From a virus (taxonomy: Duplodnaviria; Heunggongvirae; Uroviricota; Caudoviricetes): 37,765 bases of DNA. Positions 23,754-34,277 of this stretch are shown here, in pieces (position 1 is the stretch's first letter; every line of letters starts with the position of its first letter). The notes under the pieces are model-generated. The model made no database searches. It had not been told where the DNA came from and saw only the letters and a program-made list of their open reading frames with translations. The position numbers were made by a program, and so were the translations under genes. The stretch covers positions 1-37,765 of IMG/VR virus record IMGVR_UViG_643348545_000015. One strand, 5' to 3'.

Positions 23754-23787
23754 GTTTAAACTGGCTGTCGGAACAGCCAGTTTAAAC
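23754..23787. terminator. Bidirectional hairpin between Q and the convergent cargo operon
   Basis: Perfect 15-bp stem GTTTAAACTGGCTGT / ACAGCCAGTTTAAAC with loop CGGA. Confidence 0.55.
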
Positions 23788-24630
23788 ACCGGCACCAATG
23801 AAATCGCCATATGAATCTTCTTCAAGGCTGATGTATTCTACCCTCCATTGATCCATCCGCCTCAATGCATACAGGGAGAAATGAGTATCAGCAACAGCTA
23901 TGCACGTATTCAATTCTATAAGTTCTGAATGCCCCAAGGTTGGATCACCATAAAACTTATAAAACAAAGCCTTTAGATCAGAACATGTTTGTTCAGCCGC
24001 TCTTCTGGCATCGGGGCCACCTTCAGTTGCATCATAAACAACATTGATAGAAAGCTCATATGGTATGCCTTCCTCAAGATCGTTAAATCTTTCTTCGCCC
24101 AAATCGAAAAAAACTCCGATCAAATGCTCTGCGTTTGTGGCGATAATATCCGCAACTTCTTTTTCGAAAATAAACTTTTTATCCTCGTCGTAAGCCCGCA
24201 AGCGCTCTTCAAACGAGTTAGGAAACGCTGGACGACCATACTTAGCAGCTAACCATTGCTTAAGAGCTTGTTTCTCTTCTGTGCTAATGGAGAATGCTGG
24301 ATCGTTTTCCTCACAACAGAAAGCTTCTTTAGGAATGATGACTTTCCTTTCATGCCGGAGCTCTACTGCATTCTTCTTCGCACTTTCTGGGTTTTCAAAA
24401 CATAGATCGAGTATTCTCGGATGCTTAGCTCTTTTCATCCTGCTTGACCCCTTTTTCAAGGGGCCAAACATCAGTTCCACGTTTTTTTCTGAATTACTCT
24501 GTAAATCACAATCATGCGTTATAACTACAACTTTATGGTTCGTTTCATCAGGCTGCAGAATTCCAAGTGAAACGGCATCATCATGTTTAAGTACATGCCC
24601 CTGACGCCATGATGTTCCTCGTACCAACAT
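23782..24630 (-). CDS. Hypothetical protein, cargo operon gene 3
   Basis: 282 aa; ATG 9 nt after the gene 2 stop; no motif I can assign by eye; AT-rich codon usage. Confidence 0.6.
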   Translation of the reverse strand: MLVRGTSWRQGHVLKHDDAVSLGILQPDETNHKVVVITHDCDLQSNSEKNVELMFGPLKKGSSRMKRAKHPRILDLCFENPESAKKNAVELRHERKVIIPKEAFCCEENDPAFSISTEEKQALKQWLAAKYGRPAFPNSFEERLRAYDEDKKFIFEKEVADIIATNAEHLIGVFFDLGEERFNDLEEGIPYELSINVVYDATEGGPDARRAAEQTCSDLKALFYKFYGDPTLGHSELIELNTCIAVADTHFSLYALRRMDQWRVEYISLEEDSYGDFIGAGV

Positions 24631-24639
24631 AAATGTGAT

Positions 24640-25302
24640 TTATTCCTCTACCGTTCCAGGAATTGAAATAGATGACTTCCAATCATCTGTCGGTTTCGCC
24701 TTGCTTGCTAAGTAATTGGCCGATTCAGCAGCAGCATTCATCGCTTTAGCTTCATCAATCAATACCTGAACTGCCCTATTCCAATCCTCACCTTCTTTTA
24801 CTACGTCCATTAATGACTTACCATTAAATGCTTTCATTTTCACCAATAGCTTCGCATCATGGAGTCCAGCTTTGGAAAAAGAGTCAGCGACATTACTAAG
24901 GTTGGTAATGAATTGCACTTTTGAAGCATCATCAGGCTGGTTCTCCCCTGACAACCATTTATAGAGAGCCTGCCGAGTTATCCCCAAATCCTTTGCCAGT
25001 TCTGACATTGATGGAGACAGCACTTCTCGAATATTAGCTAAATGTTGGGCAACATTCCTGACATCAACCTCAGGAGAAATTGCAGGCGTGTACGTTGATT
25101 CTATGGAATCAAATGCAAACTGAACCCTTGGCTGAACATACTGACGCCATTGCTTATAAGCATTTACAGGGTATGAAGCCCCCGTACCAACTAATAGTAA
25201 AGATGCGGCGACAGCAACAACACCTGATACACATGAGCTTGACTGCAAATTTGGAGAATATCGATCTACAGAGCCTATGCTTCCGGTGGGAATTGCATAC
25301 AT
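24640..25302 (-). CDS. Hypothetical protein with N-terminal hydrophobic helix and HTH motif, cargo operon gene 2
   Basis: Start MYAIPTG... 7 nt after GGAGGTGA; hydrophobic CVSGVVAVAASLLLVGTGASY; HTH-like SMSELAKDLGITRQALYKWLSGE. Confidence 0.6.
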   Translation of the reverse strand: MYAIPTGSIGSVDRYSPNLQSSSCVSGVVAVAASLLLVGTGASYPVNAYKQWRQYVQPRVQFAFDSIESTYTPAISPEVDVRNVAQHLANIREVLSPSMSELAKDLGITRQALYKWLSGENQPDDASKVQFITNLSNVADSFSKAGLHDAKLLVKMKAFNGKSLMDVVKEGEDWNRAVQVLIDEAKAMNAAAESANYLASKAKPTDDWKSSISIPGTVEE

Positions 25303-25321
25303 TTTAGTCACCTCCGTTGTT

Positions 25322-26131
25322 TCAGTGCCATTTAGTACGGGCAAAATCTGAAACCATGCCTTCAAATGCTTCTTTAACTTTACTATGCAACGAAAGAATC
25401 TGTTTTTCAATTAACTGCAAATCAGTTGACATGTTGCCTTCAACATAATGATCTGTATCAATTATTGCGTGCATACGATGCTCTGTGTTACTAAATCTCG
25501 GCAACGGCAGTAAACCATTAGGAATCATATCTGGCGGAAAACCTAGCTGACCATTCATCTTATGTATTCGTGAAACCATAAATCCATTAGGGATCAATGG
25601 CTCAACACATGTCTGATATACGGACTCTTGTATAGACTGTATTGGCGTCCATCCGAAATCAACACCATGAAGTTCCTTTACAAGATACTGCTCAATTGTT
25701 TCGCTTTTCTCAGGAAACACAGCATCCAAATATCGAAGCCCAATCCGACTTAACAGCGATGGCTTAGCAAATTCTAGAACTTTGCTCAGACCAAGTATCA
25801 ATGACGAGATGAAAGATACATGGTTATCATAATATGTTGTATGGAACGTAATGAAATCGTTGCCTAAAACAAAACCAGATCTTCTATCTGCATCAATCAT
25901 CAACCAACTTGTCACAGGCTCAAATGAATGTACCGGTGGCTCATTGGGGTTTTTTATTTCAAATTTCAACTGAGTTGTATTGGAAACCTCAAATAAAGGA
26001 AATCCCTCAACTCTTAGCGCATCTTGTATGTCTGGAACATACTTACTCATTGCAGCTATTGGAGTAAACTTTACCTGTACCAATGCATAGTAAACGGGCG
26101 CATTGGACATACGTTCGCTGTTAGTACTCAT
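25322..26131 (-). CDS. Hypothetical protein, cargo operon gene 1
   Basis: 269 aa, RBS AAGGAGG before the ATG. The N-terminal pattern NAPVYYALVQVKF is vaguely reminiscent (from memory, unverified) of the uncharacterised TIGR04255 family. Confidence 0.6.
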   Translation of the reverse strand: MSTNSERMSNAPVYYALVQVKFTPIAAMSKYVPDIQDALRVEGFPLFEVSNTTQLKFEIKNPNEPPVHSFEPVTSWLMIDADRRSGFVLGNDFITFHTTYYDNHVSFISSLILGLSKVLEFAKPSLLSRIGLRYLDAVFPEKSETIEQYLVKELHGVDFGWTPIQSIQESVYQTCVEPLIPNGFMVSRIHKMNGQLGFPPDMIPNGLLPLPRFSNTEHRMHAIIDTDHYVEGNMSTDLQLIEKQILSLHSKVKEAFEGMVSDFARTKWH

Positions 26132-26290: not shown

Positions 26291-26494
26291 TGCCCGCTTT
26301 ATGTAGTGGTTTTCATGCACCTGCATGATCTACGCAAAAGCCCACCAGTTCTGGCGGGCCTTAGCAAAAACGATCCTCAAACGATCATGCGATCTCATGC
26401 GGCATAGACATGCACTACAGAGCTAACGCCTCGCAAGGGCTCGTTGTTCAACCTTGCTGACGCCAGAAACAAGTTCAGACGCCAGCAACGTTTC

Positions 26495-26728
26495 TTAATG
26501 CAGCCAGCTGTCGTCTTCCCACACCTTCTGCATAATTTTCATCACTTGCTTCCTTTCTTCGTCCAGTTGCAGTCCGGTCAGTTCCACACCGTTAGAGCTA
26601 CCTTTGCGGATACGAATTACCGTTTTGGGATACAGGGGGCGCAGATTACGGTAAAGCTCGGATTCAAGGGCGTCCAGGGTAGACTGGCTAATCTTCTGCT
26701 CTTTATCGATCATTATTTCAATGCGCAT
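26495..26728 (-). CDS. dinI: DinI-family protein
   Basis: 77 aa MRIEIMIDKEQKISQSTLDALESELYRNLRPLYP...WEDDSWLH, resembling E. coli DinI; RBS GAGGTGA. Confidence 0.8.
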   Translation of the reverse strand: MRIEIMIDKEQKISQSTLDALESELYRNLRPLYPKTVIRIRKGSSNGVELTGLQLDEERKQVMKIMQKVWEDDSWLH

Positions 26729-26738
26729 AAAAGTCACC

Positions 26739-26927
26739 TCAGCTGATGACATCCATTGAGCGGTTGTATTCGTGGCTTCTGATTTTTGCCATGAGTTCAT
26801 CAGTCAATTCAGAAACCCACTGCAGAGCCAGTCCCTTCTCTTCATCACTACACTCACTGGCCGCTACAAGCTTAAGAAAAAAATCAATGCGCTGGAGCTT
26901 CAAAGACTCCAAAAAATAGTCCTGCAT
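26739..26927 (-). CDS. Small hypothetical protein, first gene of the LexA-box operon
   Basis: 62-aa ORF with RBS GGAGGAAAG, 10 nt upstream of the dinI-like gene; function unknown. Confidence 0.5.
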   Translation of the reverse strand: MQDYFLESLKLQRIDFFLKLVAASECSDEEKGLALQWVSELTDELMAKIRSHEYNRSMDVIS

Positions 26928-26970
26928 CTTTCCTCCTATGACACCACACGCAATACTGTATGTATAACCA

Positions 26971-26986
26971 CTGTTTATAATTACAG
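26971..26986. promoter_or_regulatory. LexA (SOS) box
   Basis: CTGTTTATAATTACAG, a perfect CTGT-N8-ACAG, 44-59 nt upstream of the 62-aa ORF. Confidence 0.7.
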
Positions 26987-27080
26987 TATATAATAATCTT
27001 ACTGATGTAAAACGTTTTTTTACGTTTATCAGCCTGATATGCCTGGTATTATTAAGAGCACGAATGGTTAACCATCGTAA

Positions 27081-27377
27081 TTAATACAGGTTTCGCCACT
27101 TATCATCTTCCTGCAAACGCTGGTTCCGATAGAAGATACGCAGGCCTGCTCCTGACGAAATACTGCCGCCGCGAAGGAGTAAATCGACCTCTTTCTCGCT
27201 ACCATCAAACCCTCTGGACTTCAGCTCATACACGAGCTGCTGTCGCTGATGGTCTGTAATTCGCTGTTTGTAGTCTTTACACCGTTTCGGTTTAACCAGG
27301 TGTAACCTTGCTGCCAGTTCCCGGCGTTCTTTTTTGCTCATACTGTGCAGGTAATCGTGCAACTCCTTGTCATCCAT
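27081..27377 (-). CDS. Hypothetical charged protein downstream of A
   Basis: ORF-track frame 27081-27437 opens at a TTG overlapping the A stop; first ATG at 27377 ([13 protein letters not shown]...). No clear RBS, so the call is uncertain. Confidence 0.35.
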
Positions 27378-27433
27378 GCGGGTGATATCCGTTCTGGTAT
27401 CCCCATCAGCTGATTTGTCTTTCCCTTGTTGGT

Positions 27434-29521
27434 TCAAATTTTCAGCAAGGGGACAGTTATTGCCACGAGTCCAAGGGGACAGTTATTGCCACGAGTCCAA
27501 GGGGCGCAAGCGCCCTGGTCGGCTGCCGCCTCCTGAACGTCAACGGCCTTACGAACCATTTTCCACTTCACGGCATGAGTGCAGATTTTGCCCTCTGCAA
27601 TGGGTGACCAGATGCCATAAATACGAATGCCGTGATCGCCATAGGCGGTCGGCTCTTCGTTGATTTCATAAGCGGTTCTGATGAGGTGATATTTACGGGG
27701 AACCAGTACGCCGCCCTGCTTCATGATGTAGGTGGCAAAACAACCAGCATCAGCTGCAGCCAGAATGGCATCAAGGCGCGGGTTATCCAGTACCGGCGCA
27801 CCTGCTTTTTTGTCACCCTGTTGCCTTGCCGCCTGACCAGCCAGCAATCGCAGTTCACGGTAAGCCTGACGCCCCGGAATGCCAAAGAAGCGGAATTGCT
27901 GAACACGATGCAGAGACGCCCAGGCATTAACGTATTCAGCGTTATCACGCAGAGATTTACCCGTTTCCTTGCTGATCTCGCCAGCCAGACCACGCCCGTC
28001 AATGTTCTTACTGATGTATTTCGCGATGTAGCTAGTCGGCGTTCCTTTGCGCGGGTTTATCAGCTCAGACTTAAAGCGTGGCCCCGTGTTATTACCCAGC
28101 TCCTCGCGGTCTTCACGGATAGCAAACTTACGCAACAATGCAGTAATGGCGCGGCGGTCTTTTTTGCGCATGAAACACAACAGGTGCCAGTGAACTGTGC
28201 CGTCATGATGCGGCTCAGCCACCCGCACGCCATACCAGCGCAACCCGGCTTTGTGCATCGCCTTACGAAATGCAGCAAACATGCCGACCAGATAATCACT
28301 GCTTTGTCTTACCGTCGCATTTGTCCAAGTCGGGTTGGGCCTACCGTTATTTAGCGTGGAATGGAAACGTGACGGACAGGTGATGGTGTAGAAAACGGCG
28401 CAGTCACCGCGCATTTCCGCGATAAGCTCCAGACCTTTAACACAGGCCATCATCTCATTGCGGCGATGCGCAGGGTTGCTGCTGCTGGCGTTTACCACAT
28501 CCTCCATGTCCAGCGTGTCGCCGTCTTCGTTCACCAGTTCATGAGAACGGAAAAACTCCAGCGACTTACGGCGCTGCTCACGTTTATGCATCACGGCTTC
28601 ATAGCTGACATAGGGAGATGCTTTTTTGCTGACCAGGCAAACAGCACGCAACTGCTCTTCCCGCCATTCGCAACGCATCTTCCACAATTTCCGATACCAC
28701 CAGTCGGCGCACAGCATACGCGCCAGCGACCCCGGAATGAGTTCATAGGGCACGGGTTTACGGCGGTTTCTTTTCCGGCGGAGTTGCTCAAACGCAGGCG
28801 GTATGACATCCAGTCGCAGGGTTTCCGCCGCCACCTTTTCCCATGTCTTGCGGATTTCTTCTGGCTTAACGTCATCGGTGGCATACAAATCGCCACAAGC
28901 GGCATCAAGGCACATGCTCATATGCGCAGCTACCAGGGTGGACAGGCGTTTCACCTGATCCTGACTCATTTCAGGCAGGATCAGCAGACCGTCCAGCCCT
29001 TCATGGCTTGCCATAAAGCGAAAAGAAGTGGATAGCTGACTGTCGCGTACATGCTCCAGTCGTTCCAGACATGGCTTAATCGTCTCACGCAAATAGCGGG
29101 AATAAGCCTTTGGCCTGCCCAGGCTGCTGAAGTATTCAATACGTTGCATCAGCGGCTTGCTGATATGGGAAGGCTGGGCGTTAACGTCCGCCAGAATGAC
29201 CATGCCCGGATTAAAACGCTGCTGCTCATGCGCCAGCTTTGCCCGGCTAATGAGCTTATCCTGCTCCATTTCGCGCTGGACAGGATCACGTGATTCATTA
29301 AAGAAATAACGCTCCCATACCTGATCACTCAGAGCCTCGCGGCGCAGTTGTTCCTGCTCGTTATCGGTAGCGTACAGAGTGATCAGGTTTGAAAGCGCAG
29401 AAACCGGCGCAACTTCCGCCGGGTCCAGATAAGGGTTAATGGCCTTTTTCGGGCTGTTCCATGAGAATGCTGCGGCGACCTCGTTAAAGCCGCTGCAGTT
29501 GTTCATATCAGCATGGCTCAT
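27434..29521 (-). CDS. A: Rolling-circle replication initiator endonuclease A
   Basis: 695 aa with HUH-type motif VHWHLLCF and tyrosine motif YIAKYISK. Confidence 0.9.
27446..27504. repeat. Tandem direct repeat, 2.3 copies of a 26-bp unit
   Basis: CAAGGGGACAGTTATTGCCACGAGTC at 27446-27471 and 27472-27497, plus CAAGGGG; lies in the last ~25 codons of A. Confidence 0.9.
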
Positions 29522-33644: not shown

Positions 33645-34277
33645 ATGTTAAACATCAGAATGGGTTCCGATACGGGAGGTAAGGCAGCTATTGAGAGGCT
33701 GCTTGAGGCTTATGGATTCACAACTAAGCAGGCATTAAGCGAGCACCTGAATGTCTCAAAAAGTACTATGGCAAACAGAGTGTTACGTGACAGTTTTCCT
33801 GCTGACTGGATAATTCAGTGTGCACTAGAAACCGGTGTTTCGTTACTTTGGTTAGCCACTGGACAGGGAAGCATGAAAGAAGGATACGAGCCTGAGAAAA
33901 GATCTCATAACGAGAACAAACAAGCAATTAAACCGTTATCCAAACTCATAACTCCATCTATTCCTAAAGGAACCTTGGAAAATGGACAACTCAGTATTGA
34001 TGAAGAGATTTTCCTAGACCACAGCATATTACCTGCAGATTATGAAGAATCGATGTTCTTAGAAACCCCTACTGATTGTTATCTCATCGATAAATCAGTT
34101 AAACAAGTCAGCAATGGATTCTGGCTTATCAATATTGATGGAATGATTATTATTGCAAAAATCATGCGGATTCCCGGCAATAAGATTGTAGTAAATCAAG
34201 ATGAAGCGTCTTTCGAGTGCTCTGCTGATGATGTGGAAGTTATTGGGCGTGCAGTCAAAGTAATAAAGAGTATCTAA
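33645..34277 (+). CDS. cI: Immunity repressor CI (186-type)
   Basis: 210 aa with N-terminal HTH (...LSEHLNVSKSTMANRVLRDSF...CALETGVSLLWLATGQG); I see no LexA-like Ser-Lys autocleavage motif; directly upstream of int. Confidence 0.8.
   Translation: MLNIRMGSDTGGKAAIERLLEAYGFTTKQALSEHLNVSKSTMANRVLRDSFPADWIIQCALETGVSLLWLATGQGSMKEGYEPEKRSHNENKQAIKPLSKLITPSIPKGTLENGQLSIDEEIFLDHSILPADYEESMFLETPTDCYLIDKSVKQVSNGFWLINIDGMIIIAKIMRIPGNKIVVNQDEASFECSADDVEVIGRAVKVIKSI

Follow-up and report, generated by a model that had tools for sequence, protein, structure and literature searches.

Prophage induction by an antirepressor under LexA control, and not by cleavage of the repressor, is the textbook alternative to lambda-type induction. 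The locus described here raises the question of whether a small two-gene operon carrying a LexA box, in a prophage whose CI repressor has no recognizable self-cleavage motif, is a switch of that kind, and which of its two genes would provide the antirepressor. The operon lies in a viral record of 37,765 nucleotides (IMGVR_UViG_643348545_000015); this whole stretch of DNA is called the window below, and by sequence it is a 186-like P2-family prophage of Escherichia coli with its early operon on the minus strand. The locus is very probably the module for SOS induction in a P2-family prophage of the 186/Fels-2 type, in a split form composed of tumA and tumB. It is a LexA-repressed operon of two genes, one for a small antirepressor (TumA) and one for a protein resembling DinI (TumB).

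A first-pass annotation of the same DNA had described the box, the two genes and a CI without cleavage motif, all of which stand, together with an out-of-frame overlap of the two genes, which does not. Nor does the novelty that it implied: split-tum SOS modules are already known and common, with published and annotated precedents. As a discovery the locus matters little, tumA and tumB being annotated in PSP3, a split tum being described in Fels-2 and PSP3, and identical proteins having been tested genetically in E. coli HS.

Position, promoter and operator of the tum operon

The operon lies directly downstream of the replication gene A (29521..27434, minus strand), the place held by p95-tum in 186, as seen when gene order was compared with those of 186, Fels-2, PSP3 and DuoHS, a prophage of E. 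coli HS. CII of the window is of the CP76 type (Pfam). The region 26440-27080 (641 bases) is 100% identical to a chromosomal stretch of E. coli 2012EL-2448, in which the neighbouring prophage genes are the same, and the operon is present in 1125 of 5426 complete E. coli genomes (about a fifth).

A putative -35 hexamer of the tum promoter, TTTACA (27006..27011, minus strand), was read from the sequence by analogy with the annotated 186 p95 promoter, and is conserved in Fels-2, DuoHS and CP019275. The putative -10 region (26983..26990, minus strand) can be read either as TACTGT at 17-nt spacing (26988-26983) or as TATACT at 15-nt spacing (26990-26985). Read with the 17-nt spacing, the predicted promoter, TTTACA-17-TACTGT, is built like the annotated p95 of 186, TTCACA-18-TACTGT. 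The hexamers are weak, and a simple consensus scan called no sigma-70 promoter at the tum operon.

SOS box 1 is a 20-mer (26969..26988) that overlaps the -10 region and the likely start site. Its core at 26971-26986, CTGTTTATAATTACAG, is the sole exact CTGT-N8-ACAG match in the window, in agreement with the perfect box that had first been noticed on the operon promoter. This 16-mer pattern is not significant by itself, 0.51 matches being expected per window and at least one being present in 39 of 100 shuffled sequences. The window was also scanned with a LexA weight matrix, which is limited in having been made from 19 E. coli sites: the best score was that of 26969-26988 (23.1 bits), the second best that of the adjacent 26954-26973 (17.9 bits), and the next site scored 9.2 bits. 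The second site, SOS box 2 (20-mer, 26954..26973), reads GTGG-N8-ACAG on the coding strand, with one degenerate half-site, and its score is within the range of the sites used to train the matrix. The 16-mer cores of box 1 and box 2 (26956-26971) overlap by one base. The TumA-type genes of 186, PSP3, Fels-2, a Klebsiella phage, Yersinia phage vB_YenM_06.16-2, Cronobacter phage ESSI-2 and ESSI2_ev015 are each preceded, at a distance of 36-62 nt, by a perfect LexA box; in all, this box is kept in eight phage lineages with TumA-type genes, the surrounding sequences being otherwise dissimilar. The LexA box is regarded as significant because the two top matrix scores are adjacent to each other at the promoter and because the box is conserved across phages.

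The tum operator is, as judged from these scores, a dual overlapping SOS box, with putative LexA occupancy of both boxes. DuoHS has the same promoter and the same dual SOS box, whereas there is just one SOS box in 186, PSP3, ESSI-2 and the Yersinia phage. Two overlapping SOS boxes also precede the colicin E1 gene cea, and the 31-nt tum operator aligns with them almost base for base; the alignment of colicin operators with the tum operator reads CTGT-N8-(A/C)CAGTGGTTATA(C/T)(A/G)TACAGTATT. The dual operator of a Klebsiella bacteriocin, carried by a small Col-type plasmid, likewise aligns nearly base for base with the tum operator. Colicin operators precede a bacteriocin gene, whereas the operator in the window precedes a phage antirepressor gene and is a dual box by prediction only. 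By analogy, a colicin-style dual SOS box may set a high damage threshold for the tum operon.

The two genes and the two parts of 186 Tum

The first gene of the operon, tumA, was confirmed as a 62-aa ORF on the minus strand (26739..26927), running from an ATG at 26927 to a TGA at 26739 and preceded by the Shine-Dalgarno sequence AGGAGG (26937-26932). No Pfam or NCBIfam family matched its product. A BLASTP comparison of the 62-aa protein with 186 Tum showed no similarity, so profile methods were required to establish homology with Tum. The 62-aa protein matched three PHROG families, phrog_698 (E 5.9e-38), phrog_8554 (E 1e-8) and phrog_1993 (E 2e-3), and the first 61 residues of 186 Tum matched the same three (E 2.7e-5, 1.4e-11 and 1.4e-22, respectively). 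When a 28-sequence alignment of the 62-aa family was compared with 186 Tum by hhalign, residues 5-44 of both aligned without gaps (probability 94.5%, E 7.5e-8), and the family-conserved Glu7, Arg13, Cys26, Ala34-Leu35 and Glu40 were all matched in 186 Tum. By these profile comparisons, the 62-aa protein and the N-terminal region of 186 Tum are homologous. The AF2 model of TumA is a two-helix hairpin (pLDDT 88); a Foldseek search of the PDB with this model returned only non-significant generic hairpins (best E 0.83).

The second gene, tumB, encodes a 77-aa DinI-family protein (26495..26728, minus strand). It starts at ATG 26728 (MRIEIMIDKEQ...), 10 nt past the tumA TGA, and its ribosome-binding site, GAGGTG (26740-26735), overlaps the tumA stop codon (26741-26739). 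The out-of-frame overlap reported by the first-pass annotation is therefore not real; it appeared because the longest ORF (26800..26495, 101 aa) had been taken in place of the real start. A 234-nt dinI-like gene is annotated likewise in Fels-2, PSP3, E. coli HS and CP019275, and the relatives start with MRIEI or MRINI. That this gene is DinI-like, as first noted, is borne out by Pfam: DinI (PF06183) matched TumB with E 6.6e-23 and 81.3 bits, above the gathering score of 24.2, over positions 1-63 of the 63-position profile, the domain starting at residue 14 of the 77-aa protein. TumB scored below the NCBIfam equivalog PRK10597 for the chromosomal E. coli DinI (42.7 bits versus a cut-off of 111), and by these scores it is DinI-like and not DinI proper. 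With 186 Tum (residues 71-145) TumB shares 41% identity, and with PSP3 TumB 78%. Membership of the DinI family suggests that TumB may bind RecA filaments.

Downstream of tumB, a likely intrinsic terminator (26332..26362, minus strand) consists of an 11-bp G+C-rich stem followed by UUUUGCG; its U-run is short, and a strict terminator scan did not call it. RNA folding of 26320-26500 on the minus strand gave z = -3.55, and predicted a further hairpin, with no U-run, at about 26450-26492 on the same strand, upstream of the likely terminator.

The first-pass annotation had proposed that both ORFs be aligned to 186 Tum, and had remarked that together they approach its size. The combined length is indeed close (62 + 77 = 139 aa, compared with 146 aa), and the alignments place the 62-aa protein on the N-terminal part (hhalign) and the DinI-like protein on the C-terminal part (41% identity). 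The two genes are thus, by homology, the two halves of Tum, i.e. a split Tum. The 186 locus shares with the window the LexA box on a TACTGT -10 hexamer, the position after gene A and the CI type. It differs in that a linker of about 25 residues joins the two parts of 186 Tum, whereas they are separate genes in the window. An internal GTG in 186 additionally gives the DinI part by itself (Tum95.5), a product annotated as one that 'modulates SOS induction'. In 186 tum is followed by orf97, whereas tumB in the window is followed by the terminator and unrelated cargo.

The split form has precedents. In Fels-2 and PSP3, tum is split by a stop codon (Lemire et al., 2011; PMC3121763), and in PSP3 the antirepressor activity is carried by the upstream gene (PMC3121763). 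The PSP3 record annotates tumA as 'similar to 5' end 186 tum; UV induction of prophage', and also tumB. Both phages have a small gene followed by a DinI-family gene (STM2728 and STM2726.1 in Fels-2, tumA and tumB in PSP3), with a LexA box, directly after gene A. Fels-2 STM2728 (TumA) is 96.8% identical to TumA of the window; PSP3 TumA is barely recognizable by sequence, its hhalign comparison with the 62-aa family being weak (E 0.004, probability 8.6%). A parallel exists in the dinI-gfoA/gftA operons of Gifsy phages 1 to 3, in which a LexA-repressed DinI homologue is associated with a small antirepressor acting against a non-cleavable repressor (Lemire et al., 2011; PMC3121763). The Gifsy operons differ in that dinI comes first, so that the gene order is reversed, and in that the phages are lambdoid; no sequence relation was found between the Gifsy antirepressors or repressors and TumA or the 186-type CI.

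The CI repressor and the role of the 62-aa gene in induction

The cI gene of the window (33645..34277, plus strand) encodes a 186-type immunity repressor, the presumed target of TumA, assigned by Pfam and by its 32% identity to 186 CI. The protein contains the same two domains as 186 CI, Phage_CI_repr (E 1.7e-30) and Phage_CI_C (E 7.2e-31). No Peptidase_S24 match was obtained with Pfam at E values up to 0.1, and the Ala-Gly dipeptide is absent from the sequence. By sequence, its only relatives in the PDB are the 186 CI entries 2FJR, 2FKD and 7JVT; the sole further PDB match, 7CI1 (AcrVA2, E 0.07), is at chance level. These results uphold the first-pass remark that CI has no visible autocleavage motif. 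A LexA-like Ser-Lys dyad was looked for by placing LexA by eye in the alignment of CI with 186 CI: a Lys aligns with LexA Lys156, the Ser position is occupied by Phe and no S24 profile matches, and this candidate was rejected.

Genetic evidence comes from DuoHS. Its TumA (ECHS_RS04495) and DinI-like protein (ECHS_RS04500) are both 100% identical to those of the window, and its operon has the same position after gene A. Either a markerless delta-tum deletion or a lexA(Ind-) allele abolishes mitomycin C-induced lysis and virion assembly of DuoHS (Phollow paper, Nat Microbiol 2025; PMC12055606). The deletion primers NHR24 and NHR28 join the ATG of tum to its TGA, retaining GGTGACTTTTATGCGCATTG (PMC12055606), and the two junctions have exact matches in the window, at 26925-26947 and at 26719-26741. 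Mapped in this way, DuoHS delta-tum removes exactly the 62-aa ORF and keeps the dinI-like gene with its ribosome-binding site. The deletion assigns an essential role in induction to the 62-aa gene. Because TumA and TumB of E. coli HS are 100% identical to those of the window, the functional test called for by the first-pass annotation has in effect been done on the same proteins. DuoHS differs from the window in its CI, which is only 41% identical to that of the window and of another immunity type, in its intact gene A and in its other downstream cargo.

These data bear on two other accounts of the locus. TumB, and not the 62-aa protein, might be the inducer, acting for instance via RecA, the 62-aa ORF being a leader or accessory peptide. 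TumB is indeed the better conserved of the two (78% to PSP3 TumB, 41% to 186 Tum), and 186 makes a DinI-only product said to modulate SOS induction. However, induction of DuoHS was abolished in a deletion that keeps the dinI-like gene and its ribosome-binding site (PMC12055606), ESSI-2-like and Yersinia phages have a TumA-type gene behind a LexA box with no DinI-family neighbour, the upstream gene is the one with antirepressor activity in PSP3, and deletion of the dinI homologues of the Gifsy phages left induction unaffected (PMC3121763); a role of TumB as inducer is very unlikely. Alternatively, CI could be inactivated directly by cleaving itself under RecA stimulation, as happens in lambda, and the LexA operon would be an accessory SOS module with no say in induction. 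The C-terminal part of CI does match a UmuD-like PHROG family weakly (E 0.003), a hint of a distant fold relation, but the missing Peptidase_S24 match and Ala-Gly dipeptide, the restriction of solved relatives to 186 CI, the Phe found at the position of the LexA catalytic serine when CI is aligned with 186 CI (LexA placed by eye) and the tum requirement for DuoHS induction (PMC12055606) make self-cleavage extremely improbable.

A further account leaves the circuit intact and makes the prophage a remnant. A perfect tandem duplication of 26 bp (CAAGGGGACAGTTATTGCCACGAGTC, two copies, 27446-27497, minus strand) shifts the reading frame of gene A; a 695-aa ORF remains, and a 118-aa ORF (27081-27437) corresponds to the displaced C-terminus. 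Fels-2, DuoHS and the otherwise identical prophage of E. coli 2012EL-2448 have one copy of the 26-bp unit and an uninterrupted A protein of 804-809 aa. The prophage of the window could be defective in replication, in which case derepression might no longer lead to productive lytic growth and induction would be abortive or host-killing, or the duplication may be a sequencing or assembly error. Against a defect, the A protein of 186 has only 694 aa, so that a 695-aa product might still work. We consider the remnant reading rather unlikely, and it would alter the outcome of induction, not the identity of the tum operon.

We therefore return to the tum operon as an SOS-induction module that uses a LexA-controlled antirepressor, the 186-style strategy put forward in the first-pass annotation, each sequence-testable part of which was borne out (CI type, CII, position and Tum homologies). 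In the lysogen, LexA would bind the dual overlapping SOS operator over the -10 and the early transcribed region, and keep the operon off. Upon DNA damage, active RecA would promote LexA self-cleavage and the tum operon would be transcribed. The two-helix TumA would then bind the 186-type CI, itself not self-cleaving, and CI would no longer hold its operators; the 186 Tum protein binds CI and prevents operator binding, as summarized in a citing paper (Shearwin et al., 1998, cited in PMC3121763). Loss of CI from the operators would allow the early lytic promoter to fire (Apl, CII and replication genes). TumB, the counterpart of the Tum C-terminal part and of Tum95.5, most likely acts on host RecA filaments and so tunes the SOS signal. 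It is probably dispensable for the switch itself, as TumA-type genes stand alone in ESSI-2-like and Yersinia phages and the Gifsy dinI deletions are neutral. That induction requires LexA cleavage and the 62-aa gene has been shown by others with identical proteins, in DuoHS. Direct binding of TumA to CI of the window, the binding of LexA at the two boxes and the function of TumB are deduced; in particular, an action of TumA on the window's own CI is extrapolated from prophages whose CI is 41% (DuoHS) and 60% (Fels-2) identical to it.

Distribution of TumA, its pairing with CI, and the downstream cargo

A word-indexed protein search with TumA gave 484 matches, and every one of the 120 listed has an identity of 82% or more and a length of 55-109 aa; among these 120, none has a Pfam domain and none is fused to DinI. 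The 67 TumA representatives returned by an exhaustive representative search are nearly all short, with no obvious DinI fusion of Tum length (about 146 aa) and a few longer matches of up to 1218 aa; this search used a single sequence, never reached 186 Tum and is uninformative on fused forms. In Yersinia phage vB_YenM_06.16-2, ESSI-2 and ESSI2_ev015, the TumA-type gene is alone behind a perfect LexA box, with no adjacent DinI-family gene; in the ESSI-2 record it is left without any annotation. These lone genes are consistent with TumA being the essential part.

In RefSeq, TumA is named 'hypothetical protein' (WP_001154431.1), and in some phage records and one UniRef name TumA, or a 96-aa version extended upstream, is called 'levan regulatory (domain) protein'. 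Neither name fits its demonstrated role as a Tum-type antirepressor; WP_001154431.1 should be annotated as such when SOS-inducible P2-family prophages are predicted.

A TumA of 98-100% identity is shared by phages that have CI repressors just 40-60% identical to that of the window; CI of Fels-2, for example, is 60% identical. In the nearest phages, RE2010 and SE479_1PHIH2, CI is about 97% and TumA 96.8% identical to the proteins of the window; no induction data were found for these two. The two CI domains were compared separately in 14 phages (loci L009-L021), a small sample of related phages that provides a lead and not a result. In those with a TumA at least 84% identical to that of the window, the CI N-terminal domain was 65-78% and the C-terminal domain 28-59% identical to the window protein; in those with a TumA at most 49% identical or undetectable by tblastn, the corresponding values were 40-51% and 23-32%. 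As a lead, the TumA type would track the N-terminal DNA-binding domain of CI and not its C-terminal oligomerization domain.

One invariant TumA may serve many immunity types, in combination with a colicin-style dual SOS box acting as a high damage threshold; this is a tentative proposal, to which we give somewhat less than even weight. If it is correct, TumA would dock on the conserved N-terminal domain of CI and, in polylysogens, might cross-induce heteroimmune prophages of the Fels-2 type. A literature search, with a coverage that excludes Bunny et al. (2002), found no earlier report of a broad TumA specificity or of a colicin-style dual tum box. The association of one TumA with divergent CIs and the colicin-like operator are small, testable leads on antirepressor specificity and on the induction threshold.

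Three cargo genes lie on the minus strand at 23782-26131, between the tum terminator and the portal gene. The one at 25322-26131 encodes a member of the TIGR04255 family (E 4e-53). The gene of an HTH regulator, which is given a length of 220 aa in the 2012EL-2448 annotation, falls inside 24640-25410, and the third gene (23782-24630) has a product of 282 aa to which profile searches assigned no family. PADLOC gave no defence-system match for the three. Their position is that of a variable 'moron' site, which is occupied by orf97 in 186 and by other genes in Fels-2 and DuoHS.
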